From NCBI GenBank assembly GCA_001771545.1, contig MEUC01000029.1, positions 1,445 through 65,444 on the forward strand: a stretch of 64,000 bases of DNA. The letters are read 5' to 3'. Position 1 is the first letter of the stretch, and the number at the start of each line of letters is the position of its first letter. Made by a program: the position numbers and the translations under genes. The notes beneath the pieces were generated by a model. It did not search any database. It was not told where the DNA came from and worked only from the letters and a program-made list of their open reading frames with translations. The stretch comes from a candidate division WOR-1 bacterium RIFOXYB2_FULL_42_35. GTDB lineage: Bacteria; Margulisbacteria; WOR-1; O2-12-FULL-45-9. Of this stretch, positions 956 to 43,906 are shown one piece after another.

Positions 956-3900
956 TTGTCTTCGTCTGATGGCCAGGGCCTGCCCATTGTTTCCCCGCCT
1001 GTGCAGCCTACAGAGTGTTTGTCTAGCGACCACCCCAAATATTTATTGCAAGTACTATCTGAATATATAGCAGAAGTACGCGATTATAATTCTATAACTT
1101 CTTTTAACCTTGGTTTTGTTGATCAACGCTCAAACCAAATGACCCGTCCATTAGGATTTATGTCTTTATGGTTATTGCTGATCTGGTGGGAAAAAGATTG
1201 CCAACCGCTTAAGGAAAATGACCTTAAAGGTTTATTGCCTGATGGGCAATACAAAGAAACAATTGACAATTTAATTAAAGCTGGCTGGCTGCAAGAAGTT
1301 GCTGGTGGCCTAACGCCTAAGCTGGGTCATTGGCAAGAGAACCCAAAGCGTTTTTGCCAGTTAATAGTAATAAATTTGAGATTTTTCTTAACAGCTTCAA
1401 GGCAGAATGATCCCGGGTGCAAGGAAGACCCCGTGGCTTTCTTTTTGTCTATGGTAGAAATGGACAAAGAGCTTTTATCGCAGTGTGCTGACCAGGAAAA
1501 AATTTTAGTTGCAAAAGAAAACTTAAACAATCCCTGGGAAAAGGCTTTAATGGCTTTTTCTATTGAAAGAAAATTTTATATTTTTACCTTTTTGAGCAAT
1601 TTGGCGCAAAATATTTTTGAAGCTCTTGGTTCTTTGAAGGAGGGTAGTGATATTCCCTTAAGAAGCACAAGATTTCCAGAAAACACATTGTTTCACAAGA
1701 TTTTTTACTCCCATGATGCGTTATCGTTTAGAGATAAAAAAGAGCAATTTGCAAATGCTTCTGACCAAGAAATGCTTAGGTTAAATAATTTGGCAAGTTT
1801 TTATGATGTTCCTTGGCGCATAGCGAAAGTCATAGCTAAAGGCAGGGCAAAACCTGTTTTTGCCGGTGTCTCTATAGGCCAAATAGCAGGACAGCCTTAT
1901 ATATTTATAAAAAATCTTTTCAACTTCACACCAGAACAGGGCTCATCATTTGACATTTCTGGTTCAGGGGGGGCACCCGTGATATTTCTTACAGCAAGTG
2001 ATAGCCGTGACGTATCAATGGCTGTTTTTGACCAAGAGATGCCTTGTGCTTCTATCTTTTCGCAGGTGATAAATCGCCTTTTGTCAAATGATGTGTTTTT
2101 GCGCATAATTGAAGAAAAATGGGATACTTTGATTTTTTCAAAGGTTTTAAGTGAGCCCACAGAGCCGGGTCAGCAAAGATTGCTTTCGATGATTAAATTC
2201 TTTGCTCCTGATGGCCAGCTTACAGATAAAGAGAGTTTTTTAGCTTTTCTGTTTTATATGCTGGTCAATCCTGCTTTTTTGGGTTGTGATTTTGTTTTTG
2301 GCTTTGTTTTACCTCTTTTTTTAAACTGTATTAAGAATATTGACTTTGCAAATAATACCTTTTCTTTAAACACAGAAAACATAACAGCTTTGGCCGAGAA
2401 GTTATCTCAAGAAAGAGAGGGGCAAACGCAGCGGCCCACCAATCCCTCACCTCCCGCTTTAGTAAAAGCACTTTTGCCTGATTTGATAAACTGTGGTTTG
2501 CTTGATATTTCAGTCATACAAGACACCCTGCAATATCACTTAAGCAGGGAATTAGAAGATTTTGTTTTGTTGGACAAATTGCCCTTTGGCCAGCCAGATT
2601 TTGATCAAAGCTCTAAAGAAATACTGGTTGATTATTTTGTTGAGCGTGGTTTTTTGGAAAAAAATGGGGCAGGGGCAGTTAGGTTGAGTGCCCAAAAAAG
2701 ACAAGAAGTAAACGCAAGCATTAGACAGCAACTAATAGAAATTATAAGCCCATTACCTGACAACACCGGCACAACCTTGTCGCGTAACCCACAAGAAAGG
2801 ACAAGAATTGCCGAGATTAATCCTCAACTAAGGGGACAAAGCTTTGCTTTTAAACTAAGGCTTGATCCTGCAGCTATTTCGCGTTTTAGTCAGGCAGGAG
2901 AGGTTATGCCCCTGGCGATACCAGGGTTTAGTTCTTTAGTTTTGTTGCCATCTGCAAAGGCCGCGCGGTTAAAGGATGCCAAAACTATGCTGATTTTAGG
3001 AAATGGGAAAAGAGTTAGATTTTATCTTTTTAATGATGAAACAAGAAAGCTGACGCTTCTTAGCCGTGTCACAGAGGCAGATTTTTTTAATAAAGAGTCA
3101 ACCCCAGAGATGAGTTTTAGCTCAATTCCTTGCTTAGGTAAGGTCAATGTTTTAGGAGCTACCGCAAGCGAACAGCAGGCTTTAGCTCCGCTAGCCAAAA
3201 TATTAGCTGATTTTAATGTACAGGCTTTTGAAGTGCGTGACAGTTTGGCATTTGATTGTCAATGGGAAGGCAATACCCTGGTGCTACGGCCAACTGTTTT
3301 GGCAGACTTGAGTCAGGTTGATGTCTTGTTATTAGCTTGTAATCTGTTGTTAGCTAGAGAAAATGAAGCTAACAAAAAAATAAAAATTATTTTGCAATTA
3401 TTTAAAACAGAAACAAGGCCAGAGTTAATCAAAGAAATGGAAGCAGTGGTTAAAGAACTGCCGGAAGAAAATTTGTTCCGGCATTATCCCGGGCAAATGA
3501 GCGCGGTTATTCGTTTACTCCACGATTTTAAAGACGTCAAAGGCCGCGCGCCAGCAGATTTAAAGCGCTTATTATTAGAGCGGTTATTAGTTTTTAGCCA
3601 GGAAACAAGATCTTCTGATTTTTGCTCGTATACTGGCCAAGGCACAAGCAATAGTATTAAATTGGAGCAATGGCCAGAACAAAAAACCCGTTTTATTGGT
3701 TTAGGTGTAGCTATGGTAGCAGAAAGCCAGGTTGGTTTGGGCAGCCAGGGAGTTGATTTCTTTTGCAGTAACCCGGCAAAGGGTCATTTGCTGCTTTATG
3801 TTTATTTCAGGGATCGAGAAGGTAAAATCATTGAAAAACTTTATACTTTGGCTGGCCAGCCTTATGAGCAGCATTTAATGTGGGAAAGGGATTTAGCTGT

Positions 3901-5179
3901 TATTGAGCAGACACACGGAGTTGATCTTGGTTTTATAAGAAAGCAGGGCTTAACCGAAGTCGAAAAGTTTTTACCTGCGACCCAAACTGTGTTAGCCTGT
4001 TTAGGCAGTGAGAAATTTTTAAAAGACACTTGTGTTTTAACCTCATTATGGCAGCTTTGTTCTGTAGCGCAGGGAGCTGATCTTCCCTTAGTTAGGCAGG
4101 CTTTGCTGGAAAATTTAGTTCCGGCTTTTATAAACAGTAATGAAGCTGAAGTCCAAAAATTGCTTGGCCAAATTTTACTACAGCTAGGTTTAGTTGATAG
4201 GGAGTTTGAATCTGTAGCTGACTGGGCTGATTATATTAATCAAGTAGTCAGGCCTGGTTTGCAGGTATTATCAGGCCAGCTGGCTGATAGTGACGATGTT
4301 TTGTACAATTGGTTGTCAGCTATCGAAGGTCGTTTGCAAGCAGCAGAACAAGCCCAAATTAAAGCTGGCCAAACACTTTTGGGCGAGGTGTTTTATAGGA
4401 ATGTTCCTGATTTAAGGGCTTTAGATCCGCAGACTTTACTTAACCTGGCGCTTTATTTTAAAGCCAGGCAAGCAGTTGGTGATGATCCTCAATTTACAGG
4501 AACTATTACTGAAGTTCTACCCAAAGAAAAAATAGTTGATCCGAGAGAGCGAGCTTTACCAGTAACAGCTTCTCCTGCTGATCGATTGTCTGGCACTTTA
4601 GGAAAAGTAAGAAATCTTTTTGATACTGCTTTGAACGGGGCTGGTTTGGGTGTGCAAAACGCTCTTCAAGCAGCAATTAATGCTGTTAGTTCCTATCCTC
4701 ATCAAGAAGTATTTCTGCCTTTGACCATATTAACAAGCTTGTTGGCCCAGTTTGATTCTAATAATCCTAAAAAGGATGTTACTGCTGTTAGGGATATTAC
4801 ACCCCAAGATCCCCATACTGGCGAAAAAATAAGGTCTGTGCATGTTGCTGGTTTTTCCTGGAATAATGATAGCGTTAAATATTATGTCCGTTTAGTTGCC
4901 AGGCGCCATGCTACTTTTTTTGGTCAAGCGCGGATTAGTGTTACTGTTTTTGCTGATCAAGACCAGCAAAAAGAATTGGCAGCTTTTAGGATTGATCTGG
5001 AAAAAAGAGGCGCAACCATTGATTTGGGCGGTTTATTTATAGCCGAAGCTTTAAGCGTGAGAGCTAGCGGTTATCATTTTGCTTCTTTCTTGCCACGAGC
5101 CTTGTCTGACCCTGATACTTTTTCTAAGTTTATCCAAGATCTTCAGCAAAGGCTCTGGGCTAAGCTGGACGTTAAGTAA
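956..5179 (+). CDS. Very large hypothetical protein (1407 aa). No domain recognised. Rich in Leu, Ala and Gln.
   Basis: Uninterrupted 4.2-kb ORF with a TTG start in the ORF track. No recognisable catalytic motif. Composition is more GC-rich than neighbouring genes. Confidence 0.6.
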   Translation: MSSSDGQGLPIVSPPVQPTECLSSDHPKYLLQVLSEYIAEVRDYNSITSFNLGFVDQRSNQMTRPLGFMSLWLLLIWWEKDCQPLKENDLKGLLPDGQYKETIDNLIKAGWLQEVAGGLTPKLGHWQENPKRFCQLIVINLRFFLTASRQNDPGCKEDPVAFFLSMVEMDKELLSQCADQEKILVAKENLNNPWEKALMAFSIERKFYIFTFLSNLAQNIFEALGSLKEGSDIPLRSTRFPENTLFHKIFYSHDALSFRDKKEQFANASDQEMLRLNNLASFYDVPWRIAKVIAKGRAKPVFAGVSIGQIAGQPYIFIKNLFNFTPEQGSSFDISGSGGAPVIFLTASDSRDVSMAVFDQEMPCASIFSQVINRLLSNDVFLRIIEEKWDTLIFSKVLSEPTEPGQQRLLSMIKFFAPDGQLTDKESFLAFLFYMLVNPAFLGCDFVFGFVLPLFLNCIKNIDFANNTFSLNTENITALAEKLSQEREGQTQRPTNPSPPALVKALLPDLINCGLLDISVIQDTLQYHLSRELEDFVLLDKLPFGQPDFDQSSKEILVDYFVERGFLEKNGAGAVRLSAQKRQEVNASIRQQLIEIISPLPDNTGTTLSRNPQERTRIAEINPQLRGQSFAFKLRLDPAAISRFSQAGEVMPLAIPGFSSLVLLPSAKAARLKDAKTMLILGNGKRVRFYLFNDETRKLTLLSRVTEADFFNKESTPEMSFSSIPCLGKVNVLGATASEQQALAPLAKILADFNVQAFEVRDSLAFDCQWEGNTLVLRPTVLADLSQVDVLLLACNLLLARENEANKKIKIILQLFKTETRPELIKEMEAVVKELPEENLFRHYPGQMSAVIRLLHDFKDVKGRAPADLKRLLLERLLVFSQETRSSDFCSYTGQGTSNSIKLEQWPEQKTRFIGLGVAMVAESQVGLGSQGVDFFCSNPAKGHLLLYVYFRDREGKIIEKLYTLAGQPYEQHLMWERDLAVIEQTHGVDLGFIRKQGLTEVEKFLPATQTVLACLGSEKFLKDTCVLTSLWQLCSVAQGADLPLVRQALLENLVPAFINSNEAEVQKLLGQILLQLGLVDREFESVADWADYINQVVRPGLQVLSGQLADSDDVLYNWLSAIEGRLQAAEQAQIKAGQTLLGEVFYRNVPDLRALDPQTLLNLALYFKARQAVGDDPQFTGTITEVLPKEKIVDPRERALPVTASPADRLSGTLGKVRNLFDTALNGAGLGVQNALQAAINAVSSYPHQEVFLPLTILTSLLAQFDSNNPKKDVTAVRDITPQDPHTGEKIRSVHVAGFSWNNDSVKYYVRLVARRHATFFGQARISVTVFADQDQQKELAAFRIDLEKRGATIDLGGLFIAEALSVRASGYHFASFLPRALSDPDTFSKFIQDLQQRLWAKLDVK

Positions 5180-5188
5180 AAACAGCGG

Positions 5189-6520
5189 TCAGTTATTACT
5201 GCTTTGACAGCCATTTCTTTTGCCCAGGATAGAGCAAAGTTTGCGGCTGTAAAAATATAAGCCGGTTATCAAATTAGCCATGGCTAGGGGTAGTTTTTTG
5301 GGCCAGTTAAATAAGCCCATAAATCGCGCAGAAAGTTTTCCGTGCCTGGCAAACAACCAGCCAGCCAAATAAGCTCGAAATTTTTTGCCCAAACCAATGC
5401 GGCTTTGCAGTTCACTTAAAGGCATTGTTAGGCTGTCAGCCAGCCTGATATTATGTTTTTGGCAAAAAGCCTTGACCTCTTCTTCCATTAAAGCAAATAA
5501 ACCAGCTTTAACATTATTGCCAAACAATTTTGCTGTTGTTTGGGGAAAGCCAGCGGCAGCTAATAATACCATTTGCCTGGGCTTGTTAGTTGGTAGCTTT
5601 ACCTGGCTTAAAACAGCTAATAGTTTTCTTGGCAAACCACCCAGGCTATTAGGTGAAGCTAAAACTATTAAGTCAGCCTTATCAAGTTGTTGGCTAACTT
5701 GGTTAATATCTGTCCCATTGTTCCAAGCTAAAACTTCAATATTTTCTTTATAACCCAGCCCTTTTAAAAACCAGCGAGCCAGCCCAGAAGAGATTGAGCT
5801 GTTTTTCCTGCTTGAGCCAGTTATAACAATAATTTTGGGGTTTGGGAGAAGATTGGCTGTCTGTATGTCTGGTTCAGGCCTTGGACTGGTTAATGAAGTG
5901 CCATTTGTTTCAAAGTGTAAATGCTTAAAATGATAAACTGTTTTAATCCATTCCAGCTGTGCCGTAACTAATCTTGGGCTAGTTTTTTGTTGGTTATCCA
6001 AAATTACAGATAATCGTTTGTTAGTGCTAGAGATTTCTTGCTTGGCTAGGGGATGAACAGGCGCACCGCTTTGGCCAATTATTGTTTGCCAGGTAAGAGC
6101 TGATAAGCAAAGCTCAAAAGTTTTAAGCATAAACTGAACATCAGCACAGCTGTAAGCGGATAAGCCGCTGGGATCAGCTTCTTGTCCTTGTTCACCCAAA
6201 AGATCAAGCGGCACCACCACCTCATCTGCAGCAGCAATTTGCTGTAGCGCGTTTGCCAGTGGCCCATTACCCAAACAACAAAGACCTGTGCTTTTTTCCC
6301 AACAGGAAAATTTTCTTTGGCAGTCTGGCAAATTTTTCCCGTTGATAAGAGTGACATCTCCAGGACTAATAGCTTCATGTATTCCAGAGTGAATAACAGT
6401 TAATTGTACATTTGCTTGGGTATATCGTCTAATTAATTCATCAGCCTTAGCTGGTTGGCTGCTGCTTGGACCTAATAATAAGACAACTTTTTTGCTTGTA
6501 GCGCTAGGAGTTGTTAGCAT
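5189..6520 (-). CDS. Hypothetical protein with a flavodoxin-like / NADPH-dependent FMN-reductase-like segment.
   Basis: The segment KIIVITGSSRKNSS...LIVLASP resembles the flavodoxin-fold reductase N-terminus. The remainder is unassigned. It is convergent with the 1407-aa ORF. Confidence 0.45.
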   Translation of the reverse strand: MLTTPSATSKKVVLLLGPSSSQPAKADELIRRYTQANVQLTVIHSGIHEAISPGDVTLINGKNLPDCQRKFSCWEKSTGLCCLGNGPLANALQQIAAADEVVVPLDLLGEQGQEADPSGLSAYSCADVQFMLKTFELCLSALTWQTIIGQSGAPVHPLAKQEISSTNKRLSVILDNQQKTSPRLVTAQLEWIKTVYHFKHLHFETNGTSLTSPRPEPDIQTANLLPNPKIIVITGSSRKNSSISSGLARWFLKGLGYKENIEVLAWNNGTDINQVSQQLDKADLIVLASPNSLGGLPRKLLAVLSQVKLPTNKPRQMVLLAAAGFPQTTAKLFGNNVKAGLFALMEEEVKAFCQKHNIRLADSLTMPLSELQSRIGLGKKFRAYLAGWLFARHGKLSARFMGLFNWPKKLPLAMANLITGLYFYSRKLCSILGKRNGCQSSNN

Positions 6521-6642
6521 CTTTTGTTAAAACCTTTTCTAAACCATAATGCTTAATGCTTTTTCCAAATTAAAAGCAGCAAACTCTGTTATGCTTGTGG
6601 TTCTCAAGCAACTCTTTTGCTTCGCGCAAGATTCAATATTCT

Positions 6643-6753
6643 TATATATATGAGGACTCCGAAAAATTGACTCTCTACTCGACGACAGCCGGCGACCCTA
6701 AGAGGGTCGCCTACGCGGAGAAGTTGAGTTTTTCGGAACTCTCTATATATATC
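6643..6753. repeat. MITE-like palindromic element. It has TA-repeat flanks, inverted CCGAAAAA/TTTTTCGG arms, and a central hairpin GGCGACCCT-AAG-AGGGTCGCC followed by TACGCG.
   Basis: Inverted repeats and the hairpin were read directly. A related copy lies at 42103-42240. Confidence 0.7.
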
Positions 6754-6988
6754 GCCAGTTTTTTAAGAAAATTTCACAATTTTTGGTTGGCTTGGTTTTT
6801 TTATTGTCAGATGGCTAAATTGTTGAACTTTCAATTCCTCTGTGAAATTTGATATACTGAAATAAATTACGAGAGAGAAGGAAAGAAATGCAGGTTTCAA
6901 AAAAATAATTCAAAAAAATGAAAAAATGCGGCTGCAGCAAAAAAGAAAGTCCCCATTTTTCTAATTAATTGACGAAAGCAAAATAATA

Positions 6989-41949: not shown

Positions 41950-42240
41950 GAAAAAGTGTCCCCCAAAGTGTATTTCGGGGGGAATGAGCCAAAAGAATAA
42001 CGCAGCGCCTAAGAGGCGCTGCTACGCGGGGGACCTAAATAGTTACAAATTCTTTCAAATAATTTTTGGGTTTCGTGAAATTTCTTCTTAAAATCATAGA
42101 CAACATATATAGAGAGCTCCGAAAAACTCGTTTTCTTCGCGTAGGCGACCCTCTTAGGGTCGCTCGTTGTCGACGAGAAGCAGAGCCTAAGAGGCTCTGC
42201 TACGCGAGTTAAAGGTTATTTTTTCGGAGGTCTCATATAT
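41950..42240. repeat. Cluster of three AAG-triloop hairpin units with MITE-like inverted arms and TA-repeat flanks. Related to 6643-6753.
   Basis: Hairpins read directly: GCAGCGCCT-AAG-AGGCGCTGC-TACGCG (42002-42028), GCGACCCT…AGGGTCGC (42144-42163, inverted) and GCAGAGCCT-AAG-AGGCTCTGC-TACGCG (42180-42206). Arms are ATATATAGAGAGCTCCGAAAAA / TTTTTTCGGAGGTCTCATATAT. Confidence 0.7.
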
Positions 42241-42241
42241 C

Positions 42242-43906
42242 ATGATAGCTAACGCCAATTTTGGAAGTTTATATGCTTATCTAAAACCTGGTCGCACTCC
42301 AGGCAAGAGCCAACCTTTGCTGCAAAGATTAGCTAAACAGAAAACAGTATCCAGAGGCATTGTTGCTGCAGCTAAAACCGATCTGACAATTAGCTCTAGG
42401 CTGGAAAGGCAGAATCTTTCTGCCATCGATTTTGAGCGGCTTGAAGGCCAAGCCTGCCAAACAAGACTCACTGCAATTGGGTTAATAGAAAATCGGCACG
42501 ATATGTTTGTCACTGAGGCAGAGTTAGAGGCTGCCCCTGCTCAACGCCAGCAATCAGGAACAGACACTGTTGTAGCCAGCGGTTTTGTCCATCCGGTGGC
42601 AAACGGAAATGGTCAAAGTACAAAACCAAAAGGCGGCCTGATCACAGAGGGATCCTTTCACCGGCCAGTTGTTCGTCTAATATACTCAACAATAGAACAA
42701 GGACATGTTTATATTTATCGGAACAAACTACAACCGGATAAAAATCTGGAAACAGAAGTTTTTCCGCTTGAAGGAGAACCTTTGCCCGAAAATGTTCTTG
42801 TAAGGGTCTGCTCAGATAATGAACTGGAAATCTGTTATCCTGACGGCAGTCATAGCCATTATATTGATTCCAATCATGCTGCAGGTTTTAGAATTACTAA
42901 GCTCGCACCATATTTAGCAGATATTGAATCAATTGCCGGGTATTTTTTCATGAAGGTTTCCGGTGAGGGGGAATTAGCCTTAGCTAATAGAGTTATCCCT
43001 CTGCCAAGATATGAAAGTCAATATGTTAAAGTAACCTTTGTTTATGGACAAATTACCATTGAGAATCCCGATACGAGAGAAACCTTATTCCAGTTTAAAC
43101 AAAAGAACCAAACAAGATTGCACCCCAAAGCCGCAGCAGTTGATTTAGCCTCACTTTCCGGAAGAGAGATAAGAGAGGTAAGCAAAGATGGCTCTTTTGG
43201 CTTAGGAGGTTCAACGCTATACTTGGCTCGTCACCATTACGGTAAAACGATCGCCATTGAACTTCGTGCTGGCCTCATCATCTCTATAACGGACCAGACA
43301 ACAAGACAACCGATTCCTCTGGAAGATCTGCGGGTTACTCACATTTATAGCAGCCAAGGTAGAAGAATAGGCTTTATCCCTGTTAAACATCATTTTAGTC
43401 AGGCTGATTTTAGGAGAAGAACTGGTTGGTTGCTTTTAGATGAAATTAGAGGCAAAACTTTCTACCATTGCAATGGCAAAGTCCCCTTCCCTCAAGGTTT
43501 TACCCGAGTATTTGCCAGGCTGGAAAATGGTAAAATCCTTGGTTATCACTGCTATCATGATGCCCAAGCTTTGCCCAATCAGGCTCCTGATAATCCGGTT
43601 TGGTTTAAGAGGTTATATCTAAATAGCAAAAGACCGCACTTGGTAACTCCAAAACCAGACCAGGATTTCTGGCAACAATTTTATGCAACTCCAGGAGCAA
43701 GAGTAACACATTATCAGGTTCCCAAAAATCTAAGGACTTCAATTGGTTTAACAGGAACAAGATATGTTGAGCAAAAATTCGCCAGACACTGGCAAATCAT
43801 TACTAATCTTGGAAATGGGAAACTTCTGTTTAGCTACTACAAAAACCCAACGTCTAATCCGAAAGAAAAACCGGTTGCAACCGAAGTCTGGGATATCCCT
43901 AAATAA
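42242..43906 (+). CDS. Hypothetical protein (554 aa). No recognised domain.
   Basis: Long ORF starting directly after the repeat cluster. Arg/Gln-rich, with composition distinct from its neighbours. Confidence 0.55.
   Translation: MIANANFGSLYAYLKPGRTPGKSQPLLQRLAKQKTVSRGIVAAAKTDLTISSRLERQNLSAIDFERLEGQACQTRLTAIGLIENRHDMFVTEAELEAAPAQRQQSGTDTVVASGFVHPVANGNGQSTKPKGGLITEGSFHRPVVRLIYSTIEQGHVYIYRNKLQPDKNLETEVFPLEGEPLPENVLVRVCSDNELEICYPDGSHSHYIDSNHAAGFRITKLAPYLADIESIAGYFFMKVSGEGELALANRVIPLPRYESQYVKVTFVYGQITIENPDTRETLFQFKQKNQTRLHPKAAAVDLASLSGREIREVSKDGSFGLGGSTLYLARHHYGKTIAIELRAGLIISITDQTTRQPIPLEDLRVTHIYSSQGRRIGFIPVKHHFSQADFRRRTGWLLLDEIRGKTFYHCNGKVPFPQGFTRVFARLENGKILGYHCYHDAQALPNQAPDNPVWFKRLYLNSKRPHLVTPKPDQDFWQQFYATPGARVTHYQVPKNLRTSIGLTGTRYVEQKFARHWQIITNLGNGKLLFSYYKNPTSNPKEKPVATEVWDIPK

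Follow-up and report, generated by a model that had tools for sequence, protein, structure and literature searches.

A GTAG-tagged hairpin module, probably a RAYT-type REP, in a 123-bp inverted-repeat element of Saganbacteria

Results

Elements in the window

The DNA analyzed here, referred to as the window, is a 64,000-nucleotide stretch of contig MEUC01000029.1 from a candidate division WOR-1 genome. Its proteins occur residue for residue on other contigs from the Rifle aquifer (GCA_001772455.1, GCA_001771665.1, and JGI 3300025095), and it is syntenic with the Candidatus Saganbacteria MAG L068 at 66%–73% DNA identity, so that a Saganbacteria/WOR-1 bacterium is the most likely source. The elements considered below are copy A (6652–6743), site C (41969–42046), and element B (42112–42234), and all copies in the window are intergenic. 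ORFs of 1407, 443, and 554 amino acids adjoin them (956–5179, 5189–6520, and 42242–43906), with no recorded Pfam match, and genes for a HicA toxin and for an MNT/HepT pair are found near 38–45 kb.

Copy A has inverted arms, GAGGACTCCGAAAAA at 6652–6666 and TTTTTCGGAACTCTC at 6729–6743 (read off the sequence), around a perfect hairpin with a 9-bp stem, GGCGACCCT-AAG-AGGGTCGCC, at 6691–6711; TACGCG follows at 6712–6717, and there is (TA)n on either side. All of these parts had been named in a preliminary description of the locus and are present in the sequence. Read on the minus strand, the hairpin is a REP module, CCGC-GTAG-GCGACCCT-CTT-AGGGTCGC-C, at 6687–6718, which covariance model R1 scores at 47.7 bits (E = 1.4e-9; perfect 9-bp stem). 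The left arm is a plus-strand TIR with two mismatches to the family sequence GAGAGCTCCGAAAAA, and its counterpart in the alignment is the right end of element B; the TIR search identified the right arm as the second TIR, GAGAGTTCCGAAAAA on the minus strand. TATAT at 6647–6651 abuts the left TIR and is repeated at 6744–6748; we read the pair as a target-site duplication, one that sits in a (TA)n context and is weak evidence taken alone. Alignment placed copy A and 42112–42234 in one family on opposite strands, with copy A lacking the second hairpin (REP2) and about 31 nt missing relative to element B. An 85-amino-acid ORF (6595–6852, plus strand) crosses copy A, and so do two 50-amino-acid JGI gene calls (L004 4992–5295); these are almost certainly spurious and caused by the repeat.

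The motif CCTAAGAGGN6TACGCG is found four times in the window, at 6697–6717 (+), 42008–42028 (+), 42138–42158 (−), and 42186–42206 (+). The expected count is 0.06, and none of 100 dinucleotide-preserving shuffles of the window reached four, which upholds the original view that the hairpin is not there by chance. The stems are GGCGACCCT (copy A), GCAGCGCCT, and GCAGAGCCT, plus GCGACCCT again on the minus strand. Thus, the three recurrences described near 42 kb do exist, but their stems do not all differ from that of copy A: one of the three is identical to it, in inverted orientation. All four modules have CGCGTAG on the opposite strand. Model R1, which was built from 44 copies, recovered exactly these four modules in the window; the 10 kb of contig searched beyond it yielded no more, a low density of four in about 74 kb. 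The TIR decamer on its own occurs at chance level (12 matches versus 9.5 expected), and only the pairing of TIRs around hairpins is significant.

Site C contains a solo REP module (41998–42029, hairpin GCAGCGCCT-AAG-AGGCGCTGC) within a 78-nt unit on the minus strand at 41969–42046 (R1, 47.9 bits); its DNA fold is −11.9 kcal/mol (z = −3.9). The unit is without GAGAGCTCCGAAAAA arms and is 83% identical to L065 339–416 by blastn. It consists of the REP and a tail, GGGnACCTAAATAGTTAC, and it looks like a second composite repeat family. No homologs of the neighboring genes in the window were found around L065 339–416; the 78-nt unit is all that is held in common, so site C was rejected as an orthologous conserved site.

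Element B is a full-length, 123-bp MITE on the plus strand (42112–42234; alignment, TIR search, and R1). From left to right it comprises a TIR (42112–42126), REP1 on the plus strand (42137–42168; GTAG-GCGACCCT-CTT-AGGGTCGC), a GTCGAC-containing spacer, REP2 on the minus strand (42176–42207; on the plus strand, hairpin at 42180–42200 and TACGCG at 42201–42206), and a second TIR (42220–42234). The sequence and a check of the TIR ends place 5-bp direct repeats, ATATA, at 42107–42111 and 42235–42239. The element as DNA folds at −40.4 kcal/mol (z = −8.5); the TIRs pair as the outer stem, followed by a foot stem and by hairpins that fold separately. Element B and site C lie between divergent genes. 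The ATG of the 554-amino-acid ORF is at 42242, just past the right repeat of element B, and a GGAGG within the TIR (42226–42230) is located 11 nt upstream of it.

Anatomy and covariation of the hairpin module

On the strand opposite to the searched motif, the module reads CGC-GTAG, a perfect 8- to 9-bp stem, a CTT loop, and the return stem; inspection of the modules gave perfect stems of 8–10 bp and a loop of 3 nt. GCGTAG was invariant in an alignment of 44 distinct modules (44/44), as was the apical C-T/A-G. Hardly anything changes in the foot CGCGTAG or in the apical CCT-CTT-AGG, and the five pairs in the middle of the stem are variable, with double changes. In this alignment 96% of stem cells pair, compared with 70.7% after shuffling and 25%–49% when the 3′ partners are slid, a percentage that is inflated because modules were chosen for at least seven of nine pairs. 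Changes on both sides were seen in 87 cells versus 26 in the shuffles, and six of the nine pairs covary.

Unbiased support comes from a database scan in which the stem was unconstrained. One genome per species was searched with CCTAAGAGGN5CTACGCG, so that only CCTAAGAGG and CTACGCG were fixed. Matches in MAGs of Saganbacteria, WOR-1, Margulisiibacteriota, and related low-GC lineages mostly had five or six of six stem positions complementary, with many different stems (GCCACC, GCCGAG, GCTGAG, GGTAAC, and GCATCG among them) and often as inverted doublets; scattered matches in unrelated phyla had only zero to three of six. A third class of matches was a separate high-copy repeat of Nostocales cyanobacteria. 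The earlier proposal that compensatory changes keep the module paired is borne out, both by the 44 modules and by a scan that left the stems free. Arm-to-arm (quasi-palindrome) correction is another way in which a DNA palindrome can acquire paired changes.

Most modules are extragenic. Forty-two of 57 were intergenic (15 divergent, 18 tandem, and 9 convergent), and 10 more adjoined a contig end; the remaining five were scored as genic by a crude ORF caller, and three of these lie within about 30 nt of the end of the ORF in question. Related loci totaling 182 kb contained 53 module matches, almost all of them intergenic, a density that is no genome estimate given that the loci were chosen for carrying a copy. 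The spread over divergent, tandem, and convergent regions indicates that the modules are not terminators. It is very improbable that the hairpins represent intrinsic transcription terminators or a chance palindrome: the stems are GC-rich, and a consensus scan flags the site C hairpin as terminator-like on the minus strand, but the hairpins of A and B are not followed by a T-run, in the case of B and C the genes on either side are divergent, which leaves nothing to terminate, and the invariant GTAG foot and loop are foreign to terminators. The count of four copies where 0.06 are expected also tells against this reading. The intrinsic terminator was rejected on the missing T-runs and the divergent setting.

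RAYT genes in related genomes

A search for RAYT genes gave nothing in the window, the adjoining 10 kb, or the MITE-bearing loci; RAYT genes do occur on related Saganbacteria/Margulisbacteria contigs. The product of L060 6156–6656 scores 128.8 bits against the NCBIfam model NF047646 REP_Tyr_transpos (cut-off 80) and also matches Pfam Y1_Tnp and PDB: 4ER8, E. coli TnpArep (E = 6e-11). Against the IS200 model it reaches 29.3 bits, below the cut-off of 55, and so it scores as a RAYT; the HUH and YIHKNP (catalytic Tyr) motifs are conserved. The gene is bracketed by the modules described above, with a GTAG-hairpin(CTT) upstream and a hairpin(AAG)-CTACGCG 2 nt past the stop codon. We found 47 homologs of this protein, and the same inverted bracketing is present at four more RAYT loci in other populations (L114, L120, L121, and L124; five populations with L060). 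With more distant RAYTs, the apical sequence shifts along: it is ACT-CTT-AGT in L120, and L124 has other loops. A RAYT gene bracketed in this way is the defining REPtron arrangement, here seen in relatives.

Paired changes together with RAYT-flanking modules mean that the structure is most simply a single-stranded DNA substrate of an HUH tyrosine transposase and not necessarily an RNA. Of the selected RNA or DNA structure first proposed, the DNA half has gained substance, as a RAYT-type REP that flanks RAYT genes in relatives; the evidence does not extend to a new RNA.

Eight of the RAYT homologs could be placed on contigs, all of them from outside the source samples. A RAYT may act on the window copies, but these could also be relics. 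There are no GAGAGCTCCGAAAAA arms at the RAYT loci that we saw, and the window is without homologs of the genes next to RAYT in relatives (ValRS, FTCD, FtsH, and others). In several populations (L114–L119 and L129), the RAYT gene occupies one chromosomal position, between valyl-tRNA synthetase and FTCD/FtsH, which fits a single-copy, vertically inherited gene rather than a mobile one.

At L129, tandem 20-nt half-REP iterations flank one RAYT gene on both sides (228–299 and 847–898), with TCGCGTAGCCGAGCCTCTTA twice and then the full hairpin, and the mirror image downstream; an independent assembly, L130, has one half-REP unit fewer. At the half-REP junction, the loop (CTTA) runs directly into the base preceding the foot; the junction could be the footprint of cleavage and rejoining, or of slippage.

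The 123-bp unit

The complete unit runs from a TIR (GAGAGCTCCGAAAAA) through about 13 nt, CGCGTAG-REP1, a spacer (TGTCGACGAGA, about 11 nt), REP2-CTACGCG, and another 13 nt or so to the second TIR. The two REPs are head to head with their GTAG feet outward, and their stems differ. The TIR is 15 bp long, and each end of A, B, L136, and L139 matches it at 13 or 14 of the 15 positions. The unit is conserved across species: A and B align with copies from at least two other Saganbacteria species, at least three species in all. Perfect 5-bp direct repeats lie exactly at the TIR ends in all four copies with intact TIRs: TATAT (A), ATATA (B), TGTAG (L139), and TCTAG (L136). The repeats of A and B fall within (TA)n, where two 5-mers will match almost by default; those of L139 and L136 lie outside TA tracts, with a chance of about 1/1024 each. 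The case for target-site duplication consequently rests mainly on L139 and L136. At the older, degenerate copies L068 and L023, direct repeats are absent.

A metagenome scan recovered L139 589–711, which differs from element B at one of 123 bases (99.2% identity) and has an unrelated flank, and L136, which is 87% identical to element B in a flank unrelated to the window. The locus had been called MITE-like, and TIRs of 15 bp, 5-bp direct repeats in four of four intact copies, and a 99.2%-identical copy in another flank substantiate that label. No empty version of site A turned up in the metagenome collection, and each of the 11 source-population contigs that we fetched has the elements in unchanged form. 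Short-read assemblies often break inside the repeats, and several source-population contigs end there. Within the loci that we fetched, TIR pairs lie only about 90–135 bp apart, occur only around REPs, and never enclose an ORF; no parent insertion sequence with GAGAGCTCCGAAAAA TIRs was found among them.

HUH Y1 (IS200/IS605-type) transposition inserts beside a fixed target without duplication. TIRs, a variable duplicated 5-mer, and near-identical copies elsewhere are instead the signature of staggered-cut, cut-and-insert transposition. The (TA)n flanks are target-site duplications in TA-rich targets and lie outside the element proper. Two other assignments were considered and rejected: a TA-duplicating MITE of IS630/Tc1 type, which the (TA)n flanks had suggested, because copies outside TA tracts duplicate 5 bp (TGTAG and TCTAG), and an IS200/IS605-derived palindrome element (subterminal hairpins, no TIRs, no duplication, TnpA_IS200 partner), because TIRs and direct repeats are present.

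At L036 34–68, two MITE ends stand back to back with 5 nt (GTTGT) between them, which is consistent with adjacent insertions sharing a common 5-bp target. Five of eight MITE copies end 3–30 nt upstream of a start codon (window 42226–42244, L069 2781–2787, L068 4591–4594, L023 6836–6850, and L136 1519–1549), and in two of them, B (11 nt) and L069 (7 nt), the GGAGG of the TIR is at Shine-Dalgarno distance from the ATG. The proximity to start codons may reflect target preference or co-option as a 5′ UTR or ribosome-binding site.

The unit might instead be a REPtron remnant, or a REPIN, moved by RAYT alone, that is, a RAYT transposon without its gene that is copied in trans with no DDE transposase; its parts would be the left arm with REP1, an 11-nt remnant, and REP2 with the right arm. 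We regard this as unlikely. The layout, GTAG-hairpin ... hairpin-CTAC with the feet outward, is that of RAYT loci minus the gene; RAYT genes between long TIRs in which degenerate REPs are joined to other stem-loops have been described, and such structures number hundreds per genome (Di Nocera et al., PMC3733652); REPINs are regarded as the form in which REPs replicate, with the mechanism of dissemination still unsettled (PMC8266576). What tells against it is that the flanking 5-mers vary between copies and are duplicated, unlike in HUH Y1 transposition, that the RAYT genes were seen without GAGAGCTCCGAAAAA arms, and that the two REPs of an element differ in their stems, which makes a single long REPIN hairpin impossible.

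Less probable still is that a cloverleaf-like fold is selected as RNA, either as a small RNA or as a cis-regulatory structure, for example in 5′ UTR control of translation or stability, with mobility secondary. Such a role would suit the strong structure with its paired changes (z = −8.5), the position of five of eight copies just upstream of start codons with GGAGG suitably placed in B and L069, and the known effects of REPs and MITEs on mRNA stability (PMC3733652). However, the start-codon proximity is partly automatic in short intergenic regions, modules of either orientation are found in divergent, tandem, and convergent regions and also flanking RAYT genes, and the unit bears TIRs and direct repeats. 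Because of the palindromic symmetry, the two strands fold in the same way, which a signal in DNA would be expected to do; Rfam 15, searched with both sites at the gathering threshold and at E ≤ 1, gave no match. ARAGORN found only a tRNA-Met in the window, at 60.4 kb.

Discussion

The 123-bp unit is a true MITE whose core, in the terminology of Di Nocera et al., is a head-to-head REP heterodimer. The explanation that we favor, at a probability of about 0.7, is that the hairpin module is a GTAG-tagged REP of RAYT type nested in a TIR/TSD MITE of Saganbacteria of about 123 bp, of which copy A is a worn representative. It draws on the anatomy of the module, the paired changes, the extragenic location, the module-flanked RAYT genes of relatives, the TIRs, the direct repeats, and the near-identical copy elsewhere. 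REPs and MITEs are both known kinds of element; their combination and the host phylum are new.

REPs fold in single-stranded DNA, where RAYT/TnpA_REP, an HUH Y1 enzyme, binds and cuts them; specificity comes from the GTAG foot and the loop, and the stem merely has to pair. In the mechanism that we propose, this would explain the near-fixed CGCGTAG and CCT-CTT-AGG next to five drifting middle pairs. Two different REPs lie head to head within 15-bp TIRs, both in the source lineage and in no fewer than two further species of Saganbacteria. This unit of about 123 bp would behave as a classical non-autonomous MITE that inserts where AT-rich intergenic DNA contains TA, duplicates 5 bp of the target, and is moved in trans by a staggered-cutting transposase, presumably of DDE type. 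Copy B is intact, and copy A is the same element on the other strand after loss of REP2. The elements may also affect the genes beside them.

The closest counterparts of the module are the group 3 REPs of Stenotrophomonas maltophilia (REP_Sm and TnpA_Sm), in which GTAG directly precedes an 8-bp perfect palindrome with a 3-nt loop, the loop positions are indispensable, and no imperfection of the stem is tolerated (PMC8266576). The GTAG, 8-bp palindrome, and 3-nt loop are held in common, and so are a conserved loop, a stem that varies freely yet always pairs, and a RAYT gene between inverted REPs, in our case in relatives. As in the GTAG-tagged REP superfamily at large, the modules are extragenic and multi-copy and occur as singletons and head-to-head dimers (PMC3733652). 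The Saganbacteria modules differ in their longer conserved foot, CGCGTAG, in having three apical base pairs fixed as well, in their host (Saganbacteria/Margulisbacteria), in their low density in the source contig, and in a RAYT that is tied to relatives only. A literature search returned no article pairing Saganbacteria with "repetitive extragenic palindromic."

For the shell around the dimer, there are precedents in Anabaena variabilis, where GTAG-15 dimers lie inside TATAGGA...TCCTATA, and in Halothiobacillus, where CGTC-1 dimers lie in longer palindromes; REP-free palindromes were not found in either (Di Nocera et al. 2013, PMC3733652). In these cases, too, a REP dimer is centered in a longer inverted-repeat shell that occurs only around REPs. 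The shell sequence is different, and the main text of PMC3733652 does not mention duplication, whereas here the 5-bp repeats and a 99%-identical copy show that shell and REPs move as one unit. Compared with bacterial MITEs such as Nezha of Nostocales, Correia/NEMIS, RUP, and ERIC, the unit is similar in length (about 100–150 bp), in being non-coding with TIRs and direct repeats, and in its AT-rich targets, very stable predicted fold, and intergenic position, often just upstream of genes (PMC3184786); it differs in that its core consists of RAYT-type REPs rather than IS-end remnants and in that a parent IS with matching TIRs is missing. REPINs and BIMEs of Pseudomonas and E. coli likewise have two inverted REPs as a unit, and singletons such as copy A resemble decayed dimers (PMC3733652), but the unlike stems here leave each REP to fold alone instead of in a single long hairpin, and there are additional 35-nt arms that end in TIRs, and a flanking duplication.

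The repeat that the scan encountered in Nostocales MAGs (L013–L113, for example L085 at about 720–790, L077, and L090) is present in high copy number in Rivularia, Calothrix, and Nostocaceae. It has the same 16 bases, TGTCCT-AAG-AGGACA-CGCTACGCGAACGCACTAC, and its full form is a long palindrome, GTAGTGCGTTCGCGTAGCGTGTCCTAAGAGGACACGCTACGCGAACGCACTAC. A RAYT gene at L081 2606–3175 on the minus strand (NF047646, 95.7 bits) is flanked by repeats other than this palindrome. Membership in the same family was rejected: the 16 searched bases are in common, the palindrome is different and longer, and the nearby RAYT is otherwise flanked. Cyanobacteria are the sister phylum of Margulisbacteria.

REPs are among the most abundant bacterial repeats, and how they spread is still unsettled (PMC8266576). 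It is conceivable, though we think it improbable, that the 123-bp unit reveals a route of their spread, either as dimers that hitch-hike in a TIR/TSD MITE without a RAYT or as a RAYT-dependent deletion derivative of a REPtron that leaves a 5-bp duplication. If this were so, the unit would offer a sequence-level handle on REP/REPIN dissemination, and the CCT-AAG-AGG...CTACGCG of Nostocales would hint at a REP/RAYT system that predates the split of Cyanobacteria and Margulisbacteria. In any case, a REP heterodimer packaged with clear TIRs, a duplication, and a near-identical second copy makes the question of what moves it directly testable. The repeats also serve as a practical marker, since they break short-read assemblies of the Rifle populations. 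The covariation of the hairpin alone would point to a new RNA, and it is the evidence from flanking genes that identifies a signal at the DNA level. To what was known of such repeats, the present elements add a host phylum, a shell and REPs that move as a unit with a 5-bp duplication, and a fixed foot and apex set against a freely covarying middle stem. They extend the RAYT/REP system to Saganbacteria/Margulisbacteria, uncultivated relatives of the Cyanobacteria.
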